Positions 28,904-42,185 of a DNA stretch of 64,000 bases are shown one piece after another. Position numbers and translations under genes: made by a program. The stretch's first letter is position 1; the number at the start of each line of letters is the position of its first letter. This DNA is from an uncultured Methanoregulaceae archaeon (GTDB lineage Archaea; Halobacteriota; Methanomicrobia; Methanomicrobiales; Methanospirillaceae), in assembly GCA_963737635.1 (NCBI GenBank), contig CAVTTL010000001.1, positions 1,984,001 through 2,048,000 of the forward strand, in the 5' to 3' direction. Under the pieces are notes generated by a model. The model made no database searches, was not told the DNA's origin, and saw nothing but the letters and a program-made list of their open reading frames with translations.

Positions 28904-30826
28904 ATGTTGATTGAAGATCGGCTCAAAGAGCTCAAGGATAAGATTAATGAGCGGGTGCCAGCAGGCATCAAGGTAACTGAGGTTGAATTCGAAGGACCCG
29001 AACTGGTCATCTACACTGATGACCCCAAACGGTTCGCCGACGAAGCCGACCTCATCCGGATCCTTGCCCGCGACCTCCGGAAACGTATTGTCGTCCGTCC
29101 CACCATCCTTGAAGACCCGGAAAAAGCGGCAACAGAAATAAGGGCAGTAGTACCGGAATCTTCTGGCATTACGGACATTTTTTTCGACCCGGATACCGGA
29201 GAAGTCCTCATAGAGGCAGAAAAGCCCGGCGTTGTTATCGGTAAGAACGGGATCACCTTACGGGAGATCACTAAACACATTGGCTGGACACCAAAGGTTG
29301 TCCGCACCCCTCCCATCGAAAGCAGTACCGATAAAGCAGATCCGCCAGTACCTGCGCTCGGTCAACGAGGAACGCAAAATGTTCCTCCGCACCATCGGGC
29401 GAAGGATCCACCGCGACATCCCGGGCCGCGATGACGCAAACAAAGACGCTCCCCGGAAAGACCAATGGGTGCGGGTTACTACTCTTGGGTGCTGTCGCGA
29501 AGTCGGCCGGGCCGCTTTCCTGCTCACCACTCCGGACAGTCGCGTCCTCATCGATTGCGGGGAAAAACCGGACAACTCAAACGGCACTCCCTACCTGTAC
29601 GTACCCGGAAATACACCCTCTTGCCCAGCTCGATGCCGTTGTCCTTACCCACGCGCACCTCGACCACTGTGCACTCATCCCACTCCTCTACAGGTACGGG
29701 TACGAAGGGCCGGTCTATTCGACCCCTCCGACCCGGGATCTCTCCGCGATGCTCCAGCTTGACTACCTGGACGTAATTAATAAGGAAGATCGTAAGATCC
29801 CATACAGTTCCAATGAGGTCAAGACGTACATCCGGCATTCGATTACACTCAATTATGGCAGTGTCACTGACATCGCGCCGGACATCAGGCTCACGTTCCA
29901 TAATGCAGGGCATATTCTGGGATCTGCGATCGCCCATTTCCACATCGGCGATGGTTTATACAACATAGCGTTCACCGGGGACTTCAACTACAGCAAAAGC
30001 CGTCTTTTTAACCCGGCCATCAACCAGTTCCCCCGGCTGGAGGCGCTTTTCATGGAGAGCACCTACGGCGGCTCAAACGACTTTCAGCCACCCCGTTCGG
30101 ATGCTGAGCTCAAGCTGTATGAGACCATTAACAAGGTGCTCTCACGTGGCGGCAAGGTGATCATACCCGCATTTGCTGTTGGCAGGTCTCAGGAAGTCAT
30201 GCTCGCCCTTGAAGAGGGTATGCGTCTTGGCAAGATCCCGCAGGTCAAGATCTACCTCGACGGCATGATCCGCGAGGCAACAGCAATCCACACCACCTAC
30301 CCGGAGTACCTCAATAACGATCTCCGCAACCTGATCTTCCGGGAGGGGATGAATCCCTTCCTCGCTGATTGTTTCCAACAAGTGGACTCTTCCGATCTCC
30401 GGGATAAAGTGATCAACGGCGACCCGTGCGTGATCATATCCACAAGTGGCATGCTCAACGGCGGGCCCGTCATGGAGTACCTGCTTAACCTCGCAGAAGA
30501 TGAGAGAAATGCACTTGTCTTTGTCGGGTACCAGGCAGATGGCACACAGGGACGCCGCATCCAGAAAGGATGGCGCGAGGTACCCCTTGGCCGGAAAAGG
30601 AACTATTACGATAAACCTCGAGATCGACACCATTGACGGGTTCTCGGGGCATTCCGATCGCCGCCAGCTGATGAATTACATTGGCCAGATCCAGCCCCGG
30701 CCTGAGAAAATCTTCTGCATCCACGGTGACGAAAACAATACCATTGACCTTGCCAGCTCCATCTACAAACGCTACCATATCCAGACACATTCGCCGATGA
30801 ATCTTGAGACGTACCGCATGGTATAA
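28904..30826 (+). CDS. fttA: Beta-CASP ribonuclease aCPSF1 (FttA); frameshifts near 29328, 29605 and 30596
   Basis: KH domains, REVGR, THAHLDH, AGHILGS, MESTYG, AVGRSQE, FSGHSDR, HGDE; adjacent to psmB. Confidence 0.95.
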
Positions 30827-30837
30827 CCCGGATATCC

Positions 30838-31928
30838 ATGAAGGCATACCTCTTTGTTGTCTGCCTGGGCGTATTTGCGGTTATGGCCCTCTCCAACGCG
30901 ATTGTCCCGGTGCTGCCCGGCGTTTGCCACCGGCCCTGCGTGGGAAGGTGCCATCTATGCCGCGTATTTTCTGGGGGCGTTTTTATCGACGCTCCCGGGG
31001 GGTATCCTCTCCGATCGATATGGTAGGACACCAATCATCCGTGCGGGCCTCGCGCTCACTGTCGCAAGCGGGGCATTGCTTTTCTCTACCACCGGGCAGC
31101 TGCCGGTACTTGTCCTCCGTTTGGTAGAAGGTGTCGGTGCCGGTCTCTTTATCGCTGCCGGGATGTCGTATGTCAACACGCAGCCTGATCACACCCGCCT
31201 GAGCGGCTATTATCTGGCAATGCTCAATTTCGGGCTCGTTATCGGGCTTGCCGCATCCGGCTGGCTCGCCATCCGGTTTGTGCAGCCTGCTCTCGGAATT
31301 GGCGTCTTTACAGTACTCTCACTTGCAGCTCTGGTTTCAAGTGTTTTTATCGGCGAGACGCTAAGGCCGGTTCATTCACCGGAAGCTCGGTTTCCGGGAA
31401 ACGGGAGAATGTAACAGGGGACTCCAGTTACGGGAGATCGTCGCACTTTCCATCTCCCACTGCCCATTGTGGTATTCCGCAATCATTCTCGTTGGCATTA
31501 CGGGAGCGGTCACCTCGCTGTACCCTTCATTTTCCGGTGAACCTGCGGATGTTCTCGGTCTGTGGATCGCTGGCATGAGCGTGACGACCATTTTCACCGT
31601 CCTTGTCTTCTCCCGGTTTTCGGTCCCGGCACTACCCGCAATCCGGTGGTCGGCGGTGCTCATGATAGGCGGCGTCATCCTGACGTATAAATCCCCGCTC
31701 GGGTTCGTTGTGCTCGGTGCTTTAGCCGGGATCGTTATGGTTGCCCAGATGACCGTCCTTGCCAAGGAGGAGCATCAGGGATGTATCATGGGCCTCTTTT
31801 CGACTTCCAGTTATCTTGGCATGACGATACTTCCTTTTATTGCCGGAATTATTGCTACAGTGGCAGGTTTTTTTGACGCATTCCTTTTTACCGCGATCCT
31901 TGGAGCGACAGTTGCCTTATTGCTGTGA
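30838..31928 (+). CDS. MFS transporter; frameshifts near 30917 and 31393
   Basis: GILSDRYGR motif A, LRLVEGVGAG, about 12 TM helices across frames. Confidence 0.85.
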
Positions 31929-32097: not shown

Positions 32098-34320
32098 ATG
32101 TATACTGTCCTCTACGTCGACGATGAACCTGGTCTTCTTGAGATCGGAAAACTCTTTCTGGAACAGAACGGACAGTTCACGGTTGACGTCATTACCAATG
32201 CGCCCGCCGCCCTGTCTCTCCTGCAGTCAACAACCTACGATGCGATAATTTCCGATTACCTGATGCCGGACATGGACGGCATTGAATTTCTCAAACAGGT
32301 CAGAGGTTCCGGCAATACCATTCCGTTCATTCTCTTTACCGGCCGTGGCAGGGAGGAGATTGTCATCCAGGCCCTGAATGAAGGTGCCGATTTCTACCTT
32401 CAGAAAGGCGGGGAACCTGTCTCCCAGTTTACCGAGCTTGCGTACAAAGTTCAACGGGCAATACAACGAAAGAGAGCCGAGATAAGCATCCGTAACCATG
32501 AACGCCGGGAACAGGATATCATCAACTTCCTTCCCGATGCAACGATTGCCATTGACAAAAACGGAATCGTCATCGCGTGGAACCGGGCAATCGAAGAGAT
32601 GACCGGCATACCTGTTAGTCAGATGCTGGGGAAGGGGAATTACGAGTATGCACTCCCCTTCTACGGAGAACGCCGGCCGATCTTGATTGATCTGATCTTC
32701 GCACCTCCCGAAGAGATCAAAGAGAGATATTCACATATTGTCCGGACCGGCGCAATGCTTGCTGCTGAAACCACTCTCCCGCGCCTGGGGGGAGAGACAA
32801 AAACACTGTGGGGAAAGGCAAGCCCGCTGTACGACCAGAAGGGGGAGATTGTCGGAGCAATCGAGTCAATCCGGGACATTACCGAACGCAGGCGGGCGGA
32901 GGAGGCGTTGCGCGAAAGCGAGGAGAAATACCGGGCATTCTTTTCCACAACGCGGGATTGTGTTTTTATCACGTCAAAAGACGGCATCGTCGTCGACTTC
33001 AACGATGCAGCAGTCGGTGCCATAGGCTATGAAAGCAGGGAAGACCTTGCACGGGTCACGGTAAATGATCTCTATGCAAATCCTGAGGAACGGGAAGTGT
33101 TTGTCCGGACCGTATGCGGGCAGGGGTTCGTGAAAGATTATCCGATTGACCTGAAAAAAAAGGATGGGAGTATCCTTCGTACCGTGATTTCAGCCGTCGC
33201 GCGAAAGGATGCCGAGGGTAACCTTGTCGGGTTCCAGGGCATTATCCATGACATTACCGCACAGAAGCAGATTGAACGGGATCTCCGGTCCGCACAGGAA
33301 AAACTGACCGAAGCGCACCACCTTGCCCATATCGGCGTATGGGAGTGGTCGCTGGAGACGAATACCGGGATCTGCTCCGATGAACTCTGCAGGATCATGG
33401 GATGGGATACTGCGAAACCCGCACCCCCTCTCGCTGAACTTGCACGGTATTTTACTCCTGAAAGCTGGGATCACCTGCGGAATGCAGCCGAAAAGGTTTT
33501 AGCCACCGGAGAGCCCTACAACCTTGAACTGGAAGTGGTCCGGCCCGATGGCAGCAGGATATGGACCTCTGTCTTTGGGGGTGTTAAACGAGACAGTCAG
33601 GGAAAGATTGTCCAGATGCACGGCATCGTGCAGGATATCACCGGGCGTAAGATGATGGAAGACGCGATCAGGGAAGCGAACAGGAAACTCAACCTTCTTT
33701 CCGGCATCACCCGCCATGATATCCAGAACCAGCTTCTGACCCTCAGGAGTTATCTGGCCCTCTCCCGTAATCAGATCCAAGACCCGGTGGTTCTTGGATA
33801 CCAACAAAAAGAAGAGAAGATTCTAGAAACAATAGAGCACCAGATCGCATTCACCCGGGATTACCAGAATATGGGAATACGATCGGCGACATGGCAGAAC
33901 GTAAACGCAAGTGTCATGCGTGCAACCTCGCAGCTGCCTATGCGCGATGTCCGGGTACAGGTCGACCGGAAGGATTTCGAAATCCTTGCCGATCCGCTCT
34001 TCGAGAAGGTATTCTACAACCTCATCGATAATGCGCTCAGGTATGGAGGCGATCGGATGACCGCCATCCATGTATCAGCGCAGGAATCTGATGGCGGCAT
34101 AGTACTCATCTGCGAGGATGACGGGGCCGGTATCTCCCCGAAAGATAAAAAGCACCTTTTTACCAAAGGTTTTGGGAAAAATACCGGGTTCGGCCTGTTC
34201 CTGTGCCGCGAGATCCTGTCAATTACCGGTATTGCTATAGCTGAGAACGGCCTGACCGGAAAGGGCGCCCGGTTCGAAATGATCGTCCCAAAAGAAAAAT
34301 ATCGGTTTAGCTCCCGGTAG
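32098..34320 (+). CDS. Hybrid sensor: REC-PAS-PAS-PAS-histidine kinase
   Basis: VLYVDDEP..ISDYLMP..YLQKG receiver; three PAS/PAC domains; ITRHDIQNQ H-box; NLIDNALRYG, EDDGAGI, GFGLFL. Confidence 0.93.
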   Translation: MYTVLYVDDEPGLLEIGKLFLEQNGQFTVDVITNAPAALSLLQSTTYDAIISDYLMPDMDGIEFLKQVRGSGNTIPFILFTGRGREEIVIQALNEGADFYLQKGGEPVSQFTELAYKVQRAIQRKRAEISIRNHERREQDIINFLPDATIAIDKNGIVIAWNRAIEEMTGIPVSQMLGKGNYEYALPFYGERRPILIDLIFAPPEEIKERYSHIVRTGAMLAAETTLPRLGGETKTLWGKASPLYDQKGEIVGAIESIRDITERRRAEEALRESEEKYRAFFSTTRDCVFITSKDGIVVDFNDAAVGAIGYESREDLARVTVNDLYANPEEREVFVRTVCGQGFVKDYPIDLKKKDGSILRTVISAVARKDAEGNLVGFQGIIHDITAQKQIERDLRSAQEKLTEAHHLAHIGVWEWSLETNTGICSDELCRIMGWDTAKPAPPLAELARYFTPESWDHLRNAAEKVLATGEPYNLELEVVRPDGSRIWTSVFGGVKRDSQGKIVQMHGIVQDITGRKMMEDAIREANRKLNLLSGITRHDIQNQLLTLRSYLALSRNQIQDPVVLGYQQKEEKILETIEHQIAFTRDYQNMGIRSATWQNVNASVMRATSQLPMRDVRVQVDRKDFEILADPLFEKVFYNLIDNALRYGGDRMTAIHVSAQESDGGIVLICEDDGAGISPKDKKHLFTKGFGKNTGFGLFLCREILSITGIAIAENGLTGKGARFEMIVPKEKYRFSSR

Positions 34321-34375
34321 TACGGAGCGGCAGAACCTCACGCTCTGACACAGAATCCCTTCTGTCTTGGTACAG

Positions 34376-34894
34376 TCAGGTTTTTTTCCCTGCGTTTCGC
34401 ATCAGGACAAGCAGGCCGGTGAGGATCTGGAGTGGAGTGGGGGGGGTTCCGGGGATCTTGAGATCAACCGGTAGGATTTTGTCTGCCCCGCCAAGGACCG
34501 CGTACGTCCCGGTATAGATCCCGCCATTGCAGGCATCATCCCCGACAGCTACAACGAATTTGGGAGACGGCATCGCATCGTAAGTCTTTTTTACGGCGGT
34601 AGCCATATTGTGCGTGATCGCGCCGGTCACGATTAAGACATCGGCATGCCGGGGTGAAGCAACGAACGTGATGCCAAACCGCTCTACATCGTAGAATGCA
34701 TTGCTGAGATTATTTACTTCGATCTCGGCAGCATTGTCGCTGCCAGCATCCAGTTCACGGACGGCAAGGCTCCGCCCGAACCGCGTATCGATCTCCTGTT
34801 TTATCTCGCGGCCGAGTCTTTCCATTTCATCTTCCGGTAACGGAAGCGAACCGGTCACTTTCTTTTTTATCAGACAGGAAAATGCATTGACCAT
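34376..34894 (-). CDS. ehrS: NuoB/HyfI-like small subunit (EhrS) with the Fe-S ligands substituted
   Basis: YDVERFGITFVASPRHADVLIVTG, PKFVVAVG, PVDLKIPG identify the family; the cysteine motifs read GSDNAAE, GDDAC and IPGTPP. Confidence 0.9.
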   Translation of the reverse strand: MVNAFSCLIKKKVTGSLPLPEDEMERLGREIKQEIDTRFGRSLAVRELDAGSDNAAEIEVNNLSNAFYDVERFGITFVASPRHADVLIVTGAITHNMATAVKKTYDAMPSPKFVVAVGDDACNGGIYTGTYAVLGGADKILPVDLKIPGTPPTPLQILTGLLVLMRNAGKKT

Positions 34895-34905
34895 CGCGTT
34901 TCACC

Positions 34906-36498
34906 TCATAGGTCTGTCCCGGCGTACGACAGATTCAGGCTCTTGTTGATAACCGGGAAATCGGCAATGATATTGCCGGGTACTGCATGCTCAAGGGTGA
35001 GCCAGTTGCAGTATGAAGCTGTTCTCACCTTGTAACGGCTGATTTTTCCACCCTGTACCTCCACCCAGCAGAGGTTCTGCCCCCGCGGGGACTCTACAAG
35101 CGCGAGCGCACAGCCATCTCGGACAGGTTCGTCGCTGCACATCTGCCCGTCAGGGATAGCGGCGATAACCTGTTCGATCAAGTCGAGTGCATCTAGGATC
35201 TCCGCTGCTTTTACCGTGAACCTGGCAAGGACATCGCCATCGGCCAGGGGCATGAGCGTAGGAACGAAGCGGTCATAAATCCCGTACGGATGGTCCACCC
35301 GAACATCCATCTCGCCACCGGAAGCACGAGCAACCGGGCCGGTGATATTGAGGGGGGCAAGCAGCGGTTTTTTGATGATCCCGGTCTGCGCGAACCGGTC
35401 GATCACCGAGGTTGTCGAGAGCACGATGGAAAGCCCGGTCCTGAACTGTTTTTTGAACCGTCTAAGATAATTCTTAAAACCGGTTAGGGTTACGGCCGGG
35501 ATATCCCGCGTGACCCCGCCCGGACAGATCATTCCCCGTAGGAACCGGGAGCCGGAAAGCTTCGCGTTCTCGCGCAACATCTCCTCGCGCAACACGGCAA
35601 ACTGGCTGGCACCAAGAGCAAATGCGACGTCGGTCAGCATGCCTGCCAGATCGCCGAGGTGGGAACAGATCCTTTCGGACTCGCAGAGGACCGTCCGGAT
35701 GTGCCAAGCGCGTTCAGGCACGGTGATCCCGGAGAGTCGTTCGACTGCCATGCAAAACCCCGTCGCATTTGCCGCTGATTCGTCTCCGCTGACCGCTTCT
35801 GCGATCTTCGTGCAGTCCATTGGAGCCTTCCCTTCTGCCAGTTTCTCGATCCCCCGGTGAGTATAGAACAGGCGGACCTCGAGGTTGAAGACCGTCTCCC
35901 CGATCACGCTGAACCGGAAGTGACCGGGCTCGATGATGCCGGCATGGACCGGCCCGACCGGGACCTGATAGACGCCGTCGCCGCTCACGTTCCGGAACTG
36001 GTAGAAATCAGACGCGTTGATCGTTTTTACCGGGGTAACTGGCGCATTGGCGCATCCCTTTTCCAGCGGGTGAAACATATCAGGATATTCCTCATGCAGG
36101 ACGAGTCGCCGGGTGTCAAACGCGCCGTCGAATTCGATCCCGAACATGTCCCGGCATTCCCGTTCCGGCCATGTAGCCGAAGGAAAGACCGCGGCAATGG
36201 AGGTCGCCTGTTTTCCGGTAATATTCCGGACAAGGACGAGGATGCTGTCGTGGTGTTCGAAAACATACCGGAGCACATGCTCTTCGCCGCCAGTACCTTC
36301 AGAACAAAACAATCCGATCAGGACCCATTTCTGTGCAGTAAGAATGGGGATGGCTTGGCCAAATTCCTGTTTATTGACGTTGACGGAATACTCCCCGCTG
36401 CATCCATACGTAATCCGGGCTGGCGTAGCGGCACTACCAAAAATTTCCCGGACTGCTGCAGTGGCGGCATCTTCCCCGGTGATTTCAGTCTGGGTCAT
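34906..36498 (-). CDS. ehrL: NuoCD/HyfG-like large subunit lacking NiFe motifs (EhrL)
   Basis: ERECRDMFG, GPVHAGIIEPGHFRF, YTHRGIEK, VESPRG, IIADFPVINKSLNLSYAGTDL; no RxCxxC or DPCxxC. Confidence 0.92.
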   Translation of the reverse strand: MTQTEITGEDAATAAVREIFGSAATPARITYGCSGEYSVNVNKQEFGQAIPILTAQKWVLIGLFCSEGTGGEEHVLRYVFEHHDSILVLVRNITGKQATSIAAVFPSATWPERECRDMFGIEFDGAFDTRRLVLHEEYPDMFHPLEKGCANAPVTPVKTINASDFYQFRNVSGDGVYQVPVGPVHAGIIEPGHFRFSVIGETVFNLEVRLFYTHRGIEKLAEGKAPMDCTKIAEAVSGDESAANATGFCMAVERLSGITVPERAWHIRTVLCESERICSHLGDLAGMLTDVAFALGASQFAVLREEMLRENAKLSGSRFLRGMICPGGVTRDIPAVTLTGFKNYLRRFKKQFRTGLSIVLSTTSVIDRFAQTGIIKKPLLAPLNITGPVARASGGEMDVRVDHPYGIYDRFVPTLMPLADGDVLARFTVKAAEILDALDLIEQVIAAIPDGQMCSDEPVRDGCALALVESPRGQNLCWVEVQGGKISRYKVRTASYCNWLTLEHAVPGNIIADFPVINKSLNLSYAGTDL

Positions 36499-37979
36499 CA
36501 GAACCTCAACTCCGTAACTATCTGGGAGAGAAAAGCAGATCCTCCGGCAGGGAACATAAGCCCGAGTACAAGAACGAGGGCAAGCAGGATCACAATCGGG
36601 ATCTGCATGGAGAGCGGTGTCCGGTAAGGAACTAGTTCAGGGTTTTCGTCCGGTGGTGTGGTGCGGGTAAACATGCTGATAACGAAGTTCCCGAGGGCGG
36701 CAGCGGCTATCAAGATGAGGATGAGGACAACCGTAAGCACCCAGAGTGAAAGCGATCCGAGAGAGAGCAGGATGAGGAATTTTGAGAAAAAGGCCATAAA
36801 GGGTGGCATACCGATGATCGCGAGCCCTCCGAGGATGATCCCCCATGCCGCGAACGGCTGGAACCGGAACACGTCGTGGATGTCATCAGGGGCATCGGCA
36901 GAAATATGACTCCGGTATTGCCGGTGCAGGATACCGGCTGAGAAGAAGAGCGAGGCTTTCGTGAGGGCGTGCGCGATAACCTGGAAAAGTACCCAGAAGA
37001 TCGCAACCGGTGTAGCGACAGCAATGCCAACCAGGATGATACCCATGTTCTCGATACTTGAAAATGCGATTAGTTTCTTGAGATTCTTTTCAGGCAGCAT
37101 GGAGAACGCGGCAATGGCAATCGAGAAGATGCCAAAGAGCAGGATTGCCGGGGCAACTACGGCCGAAGCATCAGTCTGGTGGACAATGGCAAATACCCGG
37201 ATTATACCGTAGATCCCTATGTTCAGGAGCACTCCTGAGAGGACTGCACTCACCGCAGAGGGCGCCTTGGCATGGGCCTCGGGAAGCCATGTATGGAACG
37301 GGAAGATGCCGGACTTTGCGGCAAACCCGATAAAGATGAACATAAAGGCGGCGATCATCATTACAGGGGGGAATGCAGAGGCATGCTGCATCAGGGCTGT
37401 CCAGTTGAGGGTACCGTCGCCAAGCGTGGAACGAGAGATTTCAAAGAGGAAGATAAGCCCGACAAAGGCGAAGATCATAGCCACCGATGCAACGAAGATG
37501 TACTTGAGCGCCGCGTCGATATTCTCCTTCGCCGAGAGTATCGCGATAAGCATCGCCGATATGATCGTTGTCATCTCAGCAAAGATCCAGAAGAGCGCCA
37601 GATTGTCCGAGAAAAAAGCAAGAACAATGACCAGTTCGAGCAGGCACCACGCGGCATAGAAGAGCTTCAGGCTCCCCTGTTCCAGCTCCCTGTTTGCAAG
37701 CAGATTGCTGATATAGCCCCGGGCATACACGGCAGCGAGTAAGAAAATGAAGGTTGCAACCAGCACTTCCAAGAGGCCGAGGTGGTCGATGAAAAAGTAC
37801 CCGCTGCCTACAATGAAAGTGTTGACAGGGATTTGCACGAACAGGAGAATGTACAGGGTGATCGCTAAGTAAATGATCCCCTGCCCGGCGGCGGCCGCAT
37901 TCATCTGCTGGTTTGTGTGGCTGAGGGCGACAAGAATGATCGCAACGAGGGCGCAGGCCACAAAGGCGATGAGAATCAT
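36498..37979 (-). CDS. hyfF: Antiporter-like membrane subunit (HyfF/EhrD, MrpD/NuoN-like)
   Basis: FWIFAEMTT, AALKY, KSGIFPFHTWLPEAHAKAP, AFSSIEN, FFSKF. Confidence 0.9.
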   Translation of the reverse strand: MILIAFVACALVAIILVALSHTNQQMNAAAAGQGIIYLAITLYILLFVQIPVNTFIVGSGYFFIDHLGLLEVLVATFIFLLAAVYARGYISNLLANRELEQGSLKLFYAAWCLLELVIVLAFFSDNLALFWIFAEMTTIISAMLIAILSAKENIDAALKYIFVASVAMIFAFVGLIFLFEISRSTLGDGTLNWTALMQHASAFPPVMMIAAFMFIFIGFAAKSGIFPFHTWLPEAHAKAPSAVSAVLSGVLLNIGIYGIIRVFAIVHQTDASAVVAPAILLFGIFSIAIAAFSMLPEKNLKKLIAFSSIENMGIILVGIAVATPVAIFWVLFQVIAHALTKASLFFSAGILHRQYRSHISADAPDDIHDVFRFQPFAAWGIILGGLAIIGMPPFMAFFSKFLILLSLGSLSLWVLTVVLILILIAAAALGNFVISMFTRTTPPDENPELVPYRTPLSMQIPIVILLALVLVLGLMFPAGGSAFLSQIVTELRF

Positions 37980-38668
37980 GGGGACACCTCCTGCTCTTCC
38001 CAGAGGTAGAACCGGTGGAGCCGGTTATGGTACTCCTCGAGCGTCGAATCAATCCCGACGGTAAGGATGGTCGTCAGGATGATAAGGATGACCAGATCGA
38101 TGACGATCAGGAACTCGATGATGAACGGGAGCTCGGTTACAAAGATGCCAAAGAGGAGGACGCCGTTTTCCATCGAGAGGTATCCCAGCACTTTCGTGAT
38201 CGCCCTTTTCCGTGAGAAGGTCACCATCATGCCCATCAGGACAAGAGAGACCCCAATCACCGCCCCAAAGAAAAAGAGGCTTCCGTTTATCGTTGTATCC
38301 GGGATGATACGGGAGAGGGTGATGTAGACGACGATCATTAGCGCAAGCGAGATCAGAAGCGAACTCGTCGGGCTGAGGAAATGGAAGTCGATATCGCGTT
38401 TTATCCGGATCTTCTCCTGGATGGTCGCAATGAAGTACGGTATCAGGCACACTTTGAAGACCAGCGTGAGGATCGCAATGGCAAGGAGGATCGGCTCATT
38501 CTCGTACCACGCGACGCCAAGAGCGATAATAACGAGAGTAAGCGACTGGAGCGCGTAGACCCTGACCAGACTGATGAGGTTCTTTGTTGTGATGATATAC
38601 GCCGACGTAACGATCACGCAGACGAACAGGATCTTGACGATCCCATCAAAAAATGCAGGGTCGATCAT
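37976..38668 (-). CDS. hyfE: HyfE/EhrC membrane subunit
   Basis: YALQSL, FKVCLIP, VLGYLSMENGV, PFIIE; position in the operon. Confidence 0.88.
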   Translation of the reverse strand: MIDPAFFDGIVKILFVCVIVTSAYIITTKNLISLVRVYALQSLTLVIIALGVAWYENEPILLAIAILTLVFKVCLIPYFIATIQEKIRIKRDIDFHFLSPTSSLLISLALMIVVYITLSRIIPDTTINGSLFFFGAVIGVSLVLMGMMVTFSRKRAITKVLGYLSMENGVLLFGIFVTELPFIIEFLIVIDLVILIILTTILTVGIDSTLEEYHNRLHRFYLWEEQEVSP

Positions 38669-39606
38669 GCGAACACCTCGATGATGATGATAAGGGTAGA
38701 GAAGAAGAACGCCATCATAAAGAGGCTTGGCAGCCGGAAGAACCGCATCTTTGCCATGGATGACTCAAAGAGCCCCATCACAAGGGCAAGAAGGGCAGCT
38801 TTTCCGATAAAGAGAACAAAGGCGGCGGCAATAGTGGCAGGAGTGAGTGTGGTGGCGATCCCCCATGGGATGATAAGGTTGATGAGCAGTCCCATCAGGA
38901 TTACCTGTTTTATGGCAGACGAGAGTTCGAGGAGTGCAAGATTCCGGCCCGATTGTTCGAGGATCATGCCTTCGTGGATCATGGTCAGCTCGAGATGGGT
39001 CTCCGGGTTATCGACCGGGATGCGTGCGGTCTCAACGATCAGGATAATAAAAAGAGAGATTCCAAGCAATATCAGTACCGGGGTCACCGGGGTACCGGTT
39101 GTAGCCGCCACCGTGGCCATATCGATGATATTGAGGGATTTAAAGACAAATGCGAGTGCGGCAAAGACAATAATCGTAGTTGGTTCGATGACCGCCGCGA
39201 TGCTCATCTCCCGGGAGCTGCCCATACCGCCGAATGTGCTCCCTGCATCGAGGCCGCCCAGCGCCATGAAGAACCGGGCGAGCACCAGCAGGTACAAGAA
39301 GAGGATAATATTTCCGATGCCTCCAGCCGGCTCCGTGACATAGACGAGCGGGACAAAGAGCGAGGCAGTAAGGATGGCAGCGATGCAGACCCACGGTGTA
39401 ATCCTTGTGATCCGGGATGCATTGGGGGAATAGATCACTTCCTTTTTGAGGAGCTTCGCGAGCGTGTAATAGGTCTGGAAAATCGATGGCCCCTGCCGCC
39501 CCTGTGTCCACGCTTTGACCTTCTTTACCAGGCTCACGAAGAGCGGCGCAATAAGAACGACACTGACGGTGTTGATGATACCGTACAGCAGGAACTCCGG
39601 GATCAT
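38665..39606 (-). CDS. hyfC: NuoH-like membrane subunit (HyfC/EhrB)
   Basis: QGRQGPSIFQTY..LAKLLKKE, GGMGSSRE, ETARIPVDNPETHLELTMIHE. Confidence 0.92.
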   Translation of the reverse strand: MIPEFLLYGIINTVSVVLIAPLFVSLVKKVKAWTQGRQGPSIFQTYYTLAKLLKKEVIYSPNASRITRITPWVCIAAILTASLFVPLVYVTEPAGGIGNIILFLYLLVLARFFMALGGLDAGSTFGGMGSSREMSIAAVIEPTTIIVFAALAFVFKSLNIIDMATVAATTGTPVTPVLILLGISLFIILIVETARIPVDNPETHLELTMIHEGMILEQSGRNLALLELSSAIKQVILMGLLINLIIPWGIATTLTPATIAAAFVLFIGKAALLALVMGLFESSMAKMRFFRLPSLFMMAFFFSTLIIIIEVFA

Positions 39607-41552
39607 GCGAGTACCCCCAGGAAGAGGATGACGGCGACCACGGCAAGGAAGACATACAGAAGGTAGGTGTCAAGGCACCCGTTCTGCATGCGGGCAACCA
39701 AACCGGCAGCACGGCACGTTCCCCGTGCAACCGGGAGGTAGAGGTACTCCTCGAAGAACTTTACCAGCCGGATCTCTGCTGTTCCCTCAGCAAAGATGCA
39801 TTCGTGCTGGTCGTAGTATGTTTTGGTGCTCGTCTTTTTGGTCCGGTAGATGGAAGAAAAGATTGTAACAATCGGCTCCGAGAACCCGTGTCCGGTATAC
39901 TCGGTCGAGGAGGGCAGCGACCGCGCACCGCATCCCCAGGTTTCGCTGATCCTGACCTCGTGGGATGCGGTAAAATACAGGACAACGTACGTGAGCGCTG
40001 CCATGAAAAGGAGCAGCATGCTCACGAGAAGAAGGTCGGGGATGGGAAGCACATAGCCGAACGCGGTGAGGATCTGGTACGAGAAGACCCCCAGAATGAC
40101 ACACGCGGCGGCAAGGATGGCCGGGCCGGCAAGCATCGAAAGGCCGACCTCGTGGGCTTCCTCACACTCCGGTGACCGCGACCGGGCGAGGAAGATGGAG
40201 CCAAAGGCCTTCACAAAGCAGGCAGCAGAAAGGGCACTGGTGAGCGCAAAGAGGGCAAGACAGATGAACAGGAGTATTTTTATGAGTGGGTCGACCATGG
40301 AGACGGACTCAAAGAACGCCGTGTAGACCAGCAGTTCGCTGGCAAAACCGTTGAGCGGCGGGAGCGCGGCAATGGCAGCAGCTCCGGTAAAAAAGAGGGC
40401 GGAGGTAACGGGCATCTTGCCGGAAAGGCCGCCCATCTTCTCGATGTCGCGGGTGTGTGTGGCGTGCACTACTGAGCCGGCCGTGAGGAAGAGGAGGCTT
40501 TTGAAGAGCGCATGGTTGAGAGAGTGGAAGAGCGCGGCAAGCAGGCTGATGGTTGCAAGCAGGGGAAGTCCCGCGCAGGAGAAGATTACATACAGACCAA
40601 TGCCCACAAAGATGATGCCGATATTCTCGATGCTTGAGTACGCAAGGAGCCCCTTGATGTCGTCTTCCTTGATTGCGTAGATCACGCCGAGCACAGCCGA
40701 CGCAATACCGGCGATAAGGATCAGGACACCCCACCAGAGATCCGGCGAGAACACCGTGATAATAAACCGGAGGAGACCATAGACGGCGACCTTGAGCATC
40801 ACGCCGGACATGAGCGCCGAGACGGGCGTGGGACTTGCCGGATGGGCGTACGGGAGCCACTTGTGAAACGGAATGATCCCGGCCTTGATGGCAAAGCCGA
40901 TAAAAAGCGAGAGAAACGCGACCGTGACCAGAGGCATCGACACAGCGGGAAGATGCACCGGGGCGATCGCAAACGAACCGGAAGCGACAAAAAGGGCAAT
41001 GATCCCGAGCATTACAAAGAGGGTCGAGAGCTGGGTCATCACGAAATAGAAGATCCCGGCTTTCCGTGTCTCGGCGTGTGTATACTCGTACATCACGAGG
41101 AAAAAGGAGACCACTGCCATAAGCTCCCAGAACACGAGAAACGAGATCGTGTTTTCCGAGGCAACCACAAGCACCATGGCGAGCACGAAGAGACCGATGC
41201 AGCCGCAGAGAAGGTTGCGACGGCTCCCGCCCTCCATATGCTCAACGTACCCGGTGCTGTAGACCGCGACACAGGCTGCAACGATCCCTATGAGGAACAG
41301 GAAGAACGCGGCGAGCCGGTCGATAAAAAATGCTACCGCGATCCCCGGGAAGGGCTGCCAGGCGGTAAAAGCAAGAGACGTGCCGGTGACCAGGATAATG
41401 AGCGAGAGCACCGTAAGAAGCGCCGAGGCAGCCGCAATACAGGCAAGCGAGAGAGTGCGTGAGGTCCGGCTGTCCCGCGTCGCTCCCAAAAGGGCGATGA
41501 CCGCGCCGGCAAGGAAAAAGATGACGACAATCCCAAAGATCAGGCCGAGCAT
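39603..41552 (-). CDS. hyfB: Antiporter-like membrane subunit (HyfB/EhrA, MrpA/NuoL-like)
   Basis: FWELM, KAGIIPFHKWLPYAHP, GVMLK, LAYSSIEN, NHALFK, LPPLNGFASE, WGCG. Confidence 0.92.
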   Translation of the reverse strand: MLGLIFGIVVIFFLAGAVIALLGATRDSRTSRTLSLACIAAASALLTVLSLIILVTGTSLAFTAWQPFPGIAVAFFIDRLAAFFLFLIGIVAACVAVYSTGYVEHMEGGSRRNLLCGCIGLFVLAMVLVVASENTISFLVFWELMAVVSFFLVMYEYTHAETRKAGIFYFVMTQLSTLFVMLGIIALFVASGSFAIAPVHLPAVSMPLVTVAFLSLFIGFAIKAGIIPFHKWLPYAHPASPTPVSALMSGVMLKVAVYGLLRFIITVFSPDLWWGVLILIAGIASAVLGVIYAIKEDDIKGLLAYSSIENIGIIFVGIGLYVIFSCAGLPLLATISLLAALFHSLNHALFKSLLFLTAGSVVHATHTRDIEKMGGLSGKMPVTSALFFTGAAAIAALPPLNGFASELLVYTAFFESVSMVDPLIKILLFICLALFALTSALSAACFVKAFGSIFLARSRSPECEEAHEVGLSMLAGPAILAAACVILGVFSYQILTAFGYVLPIPDLLLVSMLLLFMAALTYVVLYFTASHEVRISETWGCGARSLPSSTEYTGHGFSEPIVTIFSSIYRTKKTSTKTYYDQHECIFAEGTAEIRLVKFFEEYLYLPVARGTCRAAGLVARMQNGCLDTYLLYVFLAVVAVILFLGVLA

Positions 41553-41567
41553 GAAGGCACATCCCCG

Positions 41568-42185
41568 TTATGCATCCCGGTCTCCCGGGAGAGGAGTGGG
41601 GTCGCGCTTCATGGGACAGCTCCCCGAATAATTGGCTGTGCCCTGCCCGGGCCGGATCGTCACCGGAATCTCGGGGGCCGGGACAAAACCCATCTCCCGG
41701 TAGAAGTCAACCAGTTCCGGCTTCGCATGCAGGTACAGCATCTCGTGCCGGCCGCACTCCTCGATCAGCCGTCTCATGACCAGGCGGGCAAATCCCCGGT
41801 GCCGGTACTCTTCGAGGACATAAACGCCGTCTACTTCAAAGCTATCTAGATGCCGGGAACACCGGGCAACACCGACTAACTGGGTACCAGCAAATGCCGC
41901 AAACAGCCGGTCTGTCGCAGTATCTGCTTTCTGCTGGTTATCGTGGATCCAGAGTTCTTCTTCGGCACGACGCATCTCGTGCGCCGGGAGTTCCCTGACC
42001 TCGACGCTGAGCACGGCCGGGTGGTCTATAAACGCGTGCCCAAACGTAAGAAGCTGCTTCCGGATCCGGCGGAAGATGCGTGGTTGCAAGGTGACAAACT
42101 CCCCGCATTCCTCACCTGCAAGCGCATAGAGTGTAAGCAGGGTCGCATCTTCCCCAGTGGGTTCTTGGTGTATTGCTGATGACAA
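41568..42185 (-). CDS. GNAT family N-acetyltransferase
   Basis: VYVLEEYRHRGFA acetyl-CoA motif A; FYREMGF. Confidence 0.85.
   Translation of the reverse strand: MSSAIHQEPTGEDATLLTLYALAGEECGEFVTLQPRIFRRIRKQLLTFGHAFIDHPAVLSVEVRELPAHEMRRAEEELWIHDNQQKADTATDRLFAAFAGTQLVGVARCSRHLDSFEVDGVYVLEEYRHRGFARLVMRRLIEECGRHEMLYLHAKPELVDFYREMGFVPAPEIPVTIRPGQGTANYSGSCPMKRDPTPLPGDRDA

Follow-up and report, generated by a model that had tools for sequence, protein, structure and literature searches.

The window analyzed here, a stretch of 64,000 nucleotides from an uncultured archaeon of the Methanoregulaceae, carries on its minus strand a six-gene operon in the order ehrABCDLS, and the last of these genes is the ehrS of an Ehr complex (Ech- or energy-converting-hydrogenase-related complex) of a Methanoregula. 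The six genes, which overlap by 1–4 nt and leave a single gap of 11 nt, are, to judge from this spacing, translationally coupled. The product of ehrS matches the Pfam family PF01058 (Oxidored_q6, E 2e-26) and the NCBIfam NuoB subfamily NF005012 (131 bits vs. a cut-off of 116); it has the fold of NuoB and no cysteine at any of the positions that bind cluster N2 in that protein. Its motifs read GSDNAAE, GDDAC and PGTPP. In HMMER alignments to solved structures, D53 and A56 coincide with the CxxC of Escherichia coli HycG (7z0s_G) and Pyrococcus furiosus MbhJ (6cfw_J), and D120 and T150 with the cysteines of GSCA and PGCPP in NDUFS7. An earlier note, made from the letters of the window only, had described these four substitutions, an intact reading frame and replacements at least two substitutions away from a cysteine codon, and all of this was found: the open reading frame (ORF) has 172 codons and each of the codons of D53, A56, D120 and T150 lies two substitutions from TGY. 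At the third site the same note had correctly seen an aspartate in place of the cysteine, and the assignment is refined here to the second Asp of GDDA (D120) and not the first (D119).

The AlphaFold2 model of EhrS, built from 68 sequences, reaches a predicted local distance difference test score (pLDDT) of 89.0 and a predicted template modeling score of 0.82 and is poor only at residues 1–20 and at the last few, and Foldseek superposes it on NuoB-type chains, the best being MbhJ (6cfw_J; template modeling score 0.89, root-mean-square deviation 1.9 Å, 136 columns). Alignment and model together indicate that EhrS retains the NuoB fold and has lost the ligands of the proximal [4Fe-4S] cluster. 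Two cysteines remain, C122 and the N-terminal Cys7, as the earlier note had stated; C122, the ‘shifted Cys’ of that note, is not a new or shifted ligand: cysteine occupies this position in 32 of 94 four-Cys representatives, which makes C122 an inherited feature of the family. D119 is not new either, aspartate being present there in 28 of the same 94.

One explanation of such a pattern would be that the substitutions are sequencing or assembly errors, or that ehrS is a decaying pseudogene, and several split ORFs in the window do resemble indel errors. The window was compared between positions 34300 and 36600 with contigs from four other public runs of four studies. A contig of 14,286 nt (run X2) spans 34300–35647, and with it the whole ehrS gene, with 0 differences, and contigs of two further studies, spanning 34506–34861 (the first three ligand sites) and 34623–34782 (the first two), also show 0 differences; the reads of three other studies, therefore, do not bring back the cysteines. 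The split ORFs, to which the earlier note had drawn attention, fit assembly indels, and none lies in the ehr genes. They are found between 28201 and 31928 and comprise the ORFs 28904–29434, 29232–29762 and 29431–30636 and an MFS transporter divided into two ORFs (30854–31414 and 31467–31928). Elsewhere in the genome (C1:897847–898703 and 1073349–1074366) an Ech-type antiporter-like subunit and a Na+/H+ exchanger are each found in two pieces.

Close relatives carry the same trait. Among the 120 closest database proteins (74–100% identity; Methanoregula where named) all four cysteine ligands are missing in every case; D53 and C122 are present in 120/120, position 56 is Ala in 75, Thr in 44 and Val in one, and position 120 is Asp in 118, Glu in one and Val in one. 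At the fourth site 117 of the proteins have Asn and three have Thr, so that the Thr150 of the window is a minority state, and Cys7, present in 120/120, is found in only 10 of the 22 members of a wider clade alignment. A survey of 201 genomes of the order Methanomicrobiales identified ehrS orthologues (E ≤ 1e-47, identity ≥ 56%), separated by a clean gap from canonical paralogues (E ≥ 8e-34, about 40% identity), in 28 genomes, that of the window included: in 12 of the 15 other genomes of the genus, in 17, these included, of the 43 other genomes of the family and, in the other families of the order, in 1/12, 5/39 and 4/43, with 0/20 and 0/43 in two of them. The four cysteines are missing in all 27 orthologues from the 27 other genomes. 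The ratio of nonsynonymous to synonymous substitution rates (dN/dS) relative to the window gene, a rough value at these distances, is 0.056–0.206 in the 17 pairs with estimable dS (dS 0.95–2.96). Of 378 pairs in all, 90 have a dS of 0.05–1.5, and for these the median ratio is 0.156.

These ratios point to purifying selection on ehrS. The gene is not unique to its genome, selection on it is not relaxed (dN/dS about 0.06–0.2), and the loss of the ligands is shared by the 120 close relatives and the 27 orthologues with near-invariant replacements, all of which supports the proposal of the earlier note that the cluster was lost under selection and that its loss is maintained. By these comparisons the loss is a clade-wide trait in a known family and not a peculiarity of the window gene. 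With identical contigs from three other studies, an intact frame, the same loss in all relatives and orthologues and a dN/dS far below 1, sequencing error or pseudogene decay is refuted as an explanation, and we assign it practically no probability.

The extent of the clade was determined by a scan for related loci with an alignment of seven sequences as the query and one genome per species, which gave 80 named loci; together with 14 syntenic relatives from Methanomicrobiales they form a set of 94 loci. The nearest scan loci are metagenome-assembled genomes (MAGs) of Methanomicrobiales/Methanoregulaceae (77–79% identity), two Methanosarcina (65–68%) and a MAG of Methanosarcinales (62%), and contigs binned as Dehalococcoidales (65%) and Moduliflexus (59%) also fall in this methanogen clade. 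In all seven the small subunit reads D-[A/T/P]-D-N and the large subunit SGDE...S..G, the latter pattern being found in 20 of 21 other clade loci, with AGDE...S..G in the remaining one. The two loci with bacterial labels, L052 (Dehalococcoidales MAG) and L053 (Ca. Moduliflexus MAG), thus have a methanogen-type ehr (D-T/P-D-N and SGDE), which reflects either a transfer from methanogens to bacteria or mis-binning.

Over the 94 loci the small subunit has four cysteines in 61, none in 27 and one in six. The 61 four-Cys small subunits are accompanied by a large subunit without NiFe ligands, in agreement with the earlier note, according to which typical Ehr small subunits keep their four cysteines; in fact, no cysteine at the NiFe positions was found in the 92 loci that could be aligned at the C-terminal positions, of which 91 could also be aligned at the N-terminal ones. 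A tree of the small subunit, computed after the removal of five trait columns, supports the methanogen clade (16 rows) with a value of 97 in the Shimodaira–Hasegawa-like approximate likelihood ratio test and places it beside a cluster-poor group of Candidate Phyla Radiation (CPR), Bdellovibrionales and Syntrophus sequences. Three changes between the four-Cys and the non-four-Cys state are required by this tree, one of them in the outgroup, and the approximately unbiased test does not reject a tree in which the 28 cluster-poor rows form one clade (p-AU 0.455); one ancient loss of the cluster followed by transfer would thus explain the sequences as well as two losses.

The gene order A-B-C-D-L-S is that of the methanogen, Hyq and Methylobacter types, unlike that of the cluster-poor operons L114, L117 and L119 (Bdellovibrionales, Syntrophus and Magasanikbacteria), in which the small-subunit gene comes first, followed by A, B and D and then by the large-subunit gene. 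Many of the four-Cys relatives and some of the cluster-less ones (P0125, P0126, P0130, P0131, P0139, P0176 and others) have 230–340 aa with the NuoB-like part at the C-terminus, and some of their N-terminal extensions contain CxxCxxC remnants of ferredoxin-like type; the methanogen clade is without such an extension.

The partner of EhrS, EhrL, aligns with HycE (7z0s_E) in HMMER over 433 residues (E 3e-71), with AVSGDES over RVCGICG and LNLSYAG over LDPCYSC, so that both CxxC motifs of the NiFe site are absent. Among the six ehr genes no ferredoxin-type (HycF/MbhN/NuoI) gene or domain was recognized by ORF, Pfam or NCBIfam inspection, and the operon has no NuoA/J/K/I/E/F/G genes. With S237, E240, S524 and G527 at the NiFe positions, the substitutions in EhrS and no ferredoxin gene, this Ehr lacks the NiFe site and the proximal cluster as well as a subunit for electron input. 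The features considered here are listed in Table 1.

Table 1. Positions in the window of the ehr genes, of relevant codons and of the adjoining acetyltransferase gene.
Feature	Positions	Strand	Description
ehrS	34376..34894	minus	NuoB/HycG-like small subunit without [4Fe-4S] ligands; intact ORF, 172 aa
EhrS D53	34736-34738	minus	codon GAC
EhrS A56	34727-34729	minus	codon GCC
EhrS D119	34538-34540	minus	
EhrS D120	34535-34537	minus	codon GAT
EhrS C122	34529-34531	minus	
EhrS T150	34445-34447	minus	codon ACC
ehrL	34906..36498	minus	fused NuoC-NuoD/HycE-like large subunit, 530 aa, no NiFe ligands; PF00346, PF00329
EhrL S237	35788-35790	minus	at N-terminal CxxC
EhrL E240	35779-35781	minus	at N-terminal CxxC
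EhrL S524	34927-34929	minus	at C-terminal CxxC
EhrL G527	34918-34920	minus	at C-terminal CxxC
ehrD	36498..37979	minus	HyfF/NuoM-like antiporter-like subunit, 493 aa; PF00361 E 3e-50; NF006427 'hydrogenase membrane subunit' 707 bits
ehrC	37976..38668	minus	HyfE-like small membrane subunit, 230 aa; NCBIfam NF008556 'hydrogenase 4 membrane subunit' E 8e-17, below cut-off
ehrB	38665..39606	minus	HyfC/HycD/NuoH-like subunit, 313 aa; PF00146 E 2.5e-35
ehrA	39603..41552	minus	HyfB/HycC/NuoL-like antiporter-like subunit, 649 aa; PF00361, PF00662; NF006418 970 bits
GNAT acetyltransferase gene	41568..42185	minus	PF00583; 15 nt upstream of ehrA

The membrane arm, composed of two antiporter-like subunits, a NuoH-like and a HyfE-like one, retains the charged residues of its channels. 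EhrA keeps the glutamate of transmembrane helix (TM) 5, the lysines of TM7 and TM8 and a later Lys and Glu of HycC and MbhH, and it matches MrpA chains with E values of 1e-50 to 1e-52 and with the charged transmembrane residues retained; in EhrD, aligned with MbhH, the TM5 Glu, the TM7 Lys and two later lysines are conserved and the TM8 Lys is replaced by Asn. The conserved transmembrane Glu and Lys of the MrpA/MrpD type are, therefore, present in both. EhrB shares with HycD (7z0s_D) the series of loop glutamates, VE..D..E..LE...HE...E, and EhrC, which has no Pfam match, is encoded in 14/14 syntenic relatives. In 18 kb fetched around each of these relatives the six genes follow the same order in all 14, as they do in L049–L051, L053 and L054; in L048 and L052 the synteny was matched only in part or the contig is cut. 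The locus has the six subunit types of an Ehr and an EhrL without either NiFe motif, and orthologous operons occur in other families of Methanomicrobiales and in named Methanosarcina records, in line with the account of Mhun_1817-1822 in PMC2686161. By contrast, what defines a group 4 [NiFe] hydrogenase (the NiFe cysteines, the proximal-cluster cysteines and a 2x[4Fe-4S] ferredoxin-like subunit) is absent.

The former cluster pocket is strongly conserved in its new form. In the alignment of 22 clade members, which diverge to about 56–60% identity, D53, D119 and C122 are present in all, position 120 is Asp in 20 and Glu in two, and N150 is found in 21, the sole exception being the Thr of the window; position 56 varies (Thr in 11, Ala in eight, Pro in two and Glu in one). 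In EhrL the SGD is family-wide, and E240 is specific to the clade (21/21), where most other members of the family have Ser or Thr. Conserved at ≥ 90% in the clade are, among cysteines and histidines, C497 and six His in EhrL and C122 alone in EhrS, too few for any cluster. Two carboxylates, in turn, give a net charge of –2, equal to that of an oxidised [4Fe-4S]2+ cluster with its four thiolates.

It could be supposed that an iron-sulfur cluster is still bound through Asp53, Asp120 and Cys122, with Cys7 in addition within the genus, and that the complex has remained a redox enzyme. Other proteins do have [4Fe-4S] clusters with one Asp among the ligands, and Cys122 is found in 22/22 clade members, but it is the one conserved cysteine near the pocket, it is Val in the orthologue L030 and Tyr or Arg in the nearest outgroups, and Cys7 is missing in 12/22 members and lies in an N-terminus modeled with a pLDDT < 50. 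Moreover, no electron donor subunit would stand upstream of such a cluster and no NiFe site would be fed by it, and we know of no precedent for a cluster held by one cysteine plus carboxylates. We regard this possibility as highly improbable.

A different proposal, made already in the earlier note with regard to the two aspartates, is that the vacated pocket has become a mononuclear metal or cation site, made of D53, D119, D120, C122 and N150 and possibly of D239 and E240 of EhrL, in which Fe2+, Mn2+, Zn2+, Ni2+, Ca2+, Mg2+ or Na+ would be bound, the site either catalysing a reaction or sensing the ion and driving or gating the membrane arm. The (near-)invariance of these residues in the 22 members, as opposed to the variability of A56, and the clade-specific E240 speak for it, as does the convergence of the four ligand positions on one pocket, expected by homology since the fold is retained. 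Furthermore, acidic residues recur at the ligand positions across cluster-poor lineages that look independent: in 23 cluster-poor representatives at 50% identity, Asp or Glu occupies 46 of the 92 former ligand positions, and 18 of the 23 proteins have two or three. However, a carboxylate and an amide would be expected equally if they only filled the cavity or balanced its charge, and the site is tolerant, accepting Asn or Thr at the fourth position and Ala, Thr, Pro or Glu at the second. A metal site is, in our opinion, unlikely, though deserving of consideration.

The loss of all cofactor sites might also mean that EhrL and EhrS are a pure assembly relic, kept for the folding or stability of the membrane arm with replacements that are mere space fillers, or a docking platform for a separately encoded enzyme. 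The same may be read in the neighbourhood, in which no gene is conserved beside ehr in the relatives except that of the GNAT acetyltransferase. Against a relic or platform, a conservation of ≥ 90% is reached by five of the six positions of the pocket, as compared with 72 of the 172 positions of the whole protein, and EhrS is under no less constraint than the membrane subunits, with an identity of 80% (membrane subunits 81–87%) to the nearest relative and of 62% (53–59%) to a relative from another family. This explanation appears to us decidedly unlikely.

The GNAT gene is directly upstream of ehrA in 7 of the 14 Methanomicrobiales relatives, three of them from another family with 37–41% identity, and also in L048 and L049, and it is not found there in the Methanosarcina loci. 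NCBIfam gives weak GNAT/RimI-like matches for it; it may be co-transcribed with ehr and is a possible seventh member of the operon. Divergent from the GNAT-ehr genes, on the plus strand between 42408 and 46323, is a run of small redox and stress genes that encode a DUF2148 ferredoxin-domain protein, a 426-aa ORF without a family, a CDGSH plus Fer4_19 protein, a Rieske protein and a 1-Cys peroxiredoxin, of which DUF2148 alone recurs, in the nearest relative, L034. On the other side, a gene for a 740-aa hybrid protein with response-regulator, three to four PAS and histidine-kinase parts (32098–34320, plus strand) converges on ehrS with a gap of 55 nt; the kinase-domain matches found near ehr in L034 and L041 are only 44–46% identical over the C-terminal part and give no conserved link between kinase and ehr. 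An Rfam scan of the whole window at the gathering thresholds gave two tRNAs and no other RNA.

A canonical energy-converting hydrogenase of the Ech/Eha type is encoded at a separate locus elsewhere in the genome; its small subunit has all four cysteines, and the hydrogenase function is therefore covered by other genes. An Frh locus and Na+/H+ exchanger genes are also present. The sole other antiporter-like gene of the PF00361 family belongs to the Ech-type locus, and a search with PF00361 alone gave no Mrp operon in the genome, which is 90% complete. A count of Mrp genes over the order would be confounded by the Mbh hydrogenases, since these have MrpE/F/G-like subunits of their own.

The reading that we consider fairly probable is that the methanogen Ehr is a redox-independent ion translocator in which EhrL–EhrS would serve as a cap or gate of the channel. 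Because there are no cluster ligands, no NiFe ligands and no ferredoxin subunit, the complex has no path for electrons and cannot act as a hydrogenase or an oxidoreductase in the canonical way. It could work, for instance, as a secondary cation/proton exchanger similar to Mrp, with EhrL–EhrS kept to cap, close and gate the NuoH-type channel and EhrS as a structural or gating subunit in which two carboxylates replace the cluster. D53 and D120 might stand in for the charge and volume of the cluster; alternatively, together with D119, N150 and D239/E240 of EhrL, they might form a protonatable or cation-binding switch. The absence of any cofactor, the translocation of ions and the role of the carboxylates in EhrS are what we infer from sequence.

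Several observations weigh against this ion-translocator reading. Mrp antiporters work without a peripheral arm, and ion exchange alone does not, therefore, explain the constraint on EhrL and EhrS, which may hide an activity that sequence cannot reveal; the near-invariant D53, D119, D120, C122 and N150, with the SGDE of EhrL, would fit an unspecified active site equally well. The selection estimates are blunted by a dS near saturation for most pairs. Furthermore, the loss of ligands has misled before: the Hyq complex of Azorhizobium is without NiFe ligands and yet genetics ties it to H2 metabolism in the published account (PMC3357923), although Hyq keeps its four small-subunit cysteines. Finally, the passage of the Methanospirillum hungatei genome paper on these genes places ehrABCDLS among enzymes that ‘likely reduce Fd’ (ferredoxin) (PMC4704411).

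A bolder form of the ion-translocator proposal, which we put forward as speculation and think unlikely to be right, is that of a natural ‘electron-free complex I,’ in which the switch made of D53/D120, D119, N150 and EhrL D239/E240 would replace the redox reactions of N2 and NiFe as the trigger. Such a switch would set off a conformational and electrostatic wave that passes along the NuoH-like channel and both antiporter-like subunits. If this were true, ion translocation in a complex-I architecture would be driven or gated by a pH or cation signal and not by an electron, and a tractable system would be at hand in which the coupling mechanism of complex I stands apart from its redox chemistry.

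Widespread and of no known function, Ehr complexes have the architecture of complex I and of the membrane hydrogenases. A clade without any redox-cofactor site that is under strong purifying selection indicates that the complex-I scaffold is useful without electron transfer, which bears on the coupling of redox reactions and ion pumping. Genome-based models of methanogens count ehr as a ferredoxin-reducing hydrogenase (for example, in the section of the M. hungatei paper concerned; PMC4704411), and for this clade the sequence evidence argues against it. Methanosarcina is genetically tractable and carries the same cluster-less operon, which makes the question testable.

The Ehr family, to which GSU0739-45 of Geobacter sulfurreducens belongs, is already known and named: the cited passages list EhrA-1, EhrC, EhrL and EhrS (PMC7894505) and give the name ehrABCDLS to Mhun_1817-1822 of M. 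hungatei (PMC4704411), and Anderson et al. (2009) described Mhun_1817-1822 and the homologous operons of M. acetivorans and M. mazei as being without NiFe cysteines (PMC2686161). These Ehr complexes are like that of the window in having the same six subunit types in the same order and a large subunit without NiFe ligands; the Ehr-like relatives differ in keeping the four cysteines in 61 of 94 loci, vs. none in the methanogen clade. The published passages discuss NiFe ligands only and not the cluster ligands of EhrS, and a description of the loss of the latter was not found in the literature searched, which did not extend to the founding Ehr papers (Coppi 2005, Marreiros 2013) and the supplements, so that an earlier description is possible and no priority is claimed. 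What is added here is the delimited methanogen clade (Methanomicrobiales and Methanosarcina) with its signature D-x-D-N and SGDE, the confirmation by contigs of other studies and the GNAT gene conserved upstream of ehrA in Methanomicrobiales.

The only experimentally studied relative is Hyq (hyqBCEFGI) of Azorhizobium caulinodans and other diazotrophs, to which the Rhizobiales operons among the nearest relatives correspond (small subunit 51–56% identity, CCCC; large subunit SGDS...S..G). According to the relevant passages of PMC3357923, Hyq has six subunits, HyqG is without both CxxC motifs, all HyqI orthologues keep Cys-55, -58, -112 and -152, and the complex has been proposed to reduce quinone. 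Hyq is, therefore, like the Ehr of the window in composition and in its NiFe-less large subunit and, as far as these passages go, unlike it in the four-Cys HyqI, all four being replaced in EhrS. E. coli formate hydrogenlyase (HycG/HycE, 7Z0S) and P. furiosus Mbh (MbhJ/MbhL, 6CFW) are the best matches to EhrL, to the membrane subunits and to the N-terminal half of EhrS; unlike these group 4 hydrogenases, the window's Ehr has neither the NiFe and proximal cluster ligands nor the HycF/MbhN ferredoxin subunit. NuoB/PSST/NDUFS7 of complex I has the same fold and Pfam family as EhrS (E about 6e-31 to NDUFS7), in which the N2 ligands are missing. Mrp antiporters (6Z16, 7QRU) offer a working analogy in likely function and not a membership, as they are without NuoB-, NuoD- and NuoH-type subunits, unlike Ehr; their full set is of seven genes, mrpABCDEFG, and the ehr operon has none beyond its six. 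A parallel in ligand loss is the Ehr clade of the CPR/Patescibacteria treated, in the part concerned, by Jaffe et al. (2020; PMC7304191): this group, which adjoins the methanogen clade, likewise has cluster-poor small subunits (TCDD, TEGD, SEGD) and NiFe-less large subunits, and it differs in its replacement residues, in its identity of 50–58% and, in the three loci labelled Syntrophus, Bdellovibrionales and Magasanikbacteria, in an operon that begins with the small subunit and ends with the large one.

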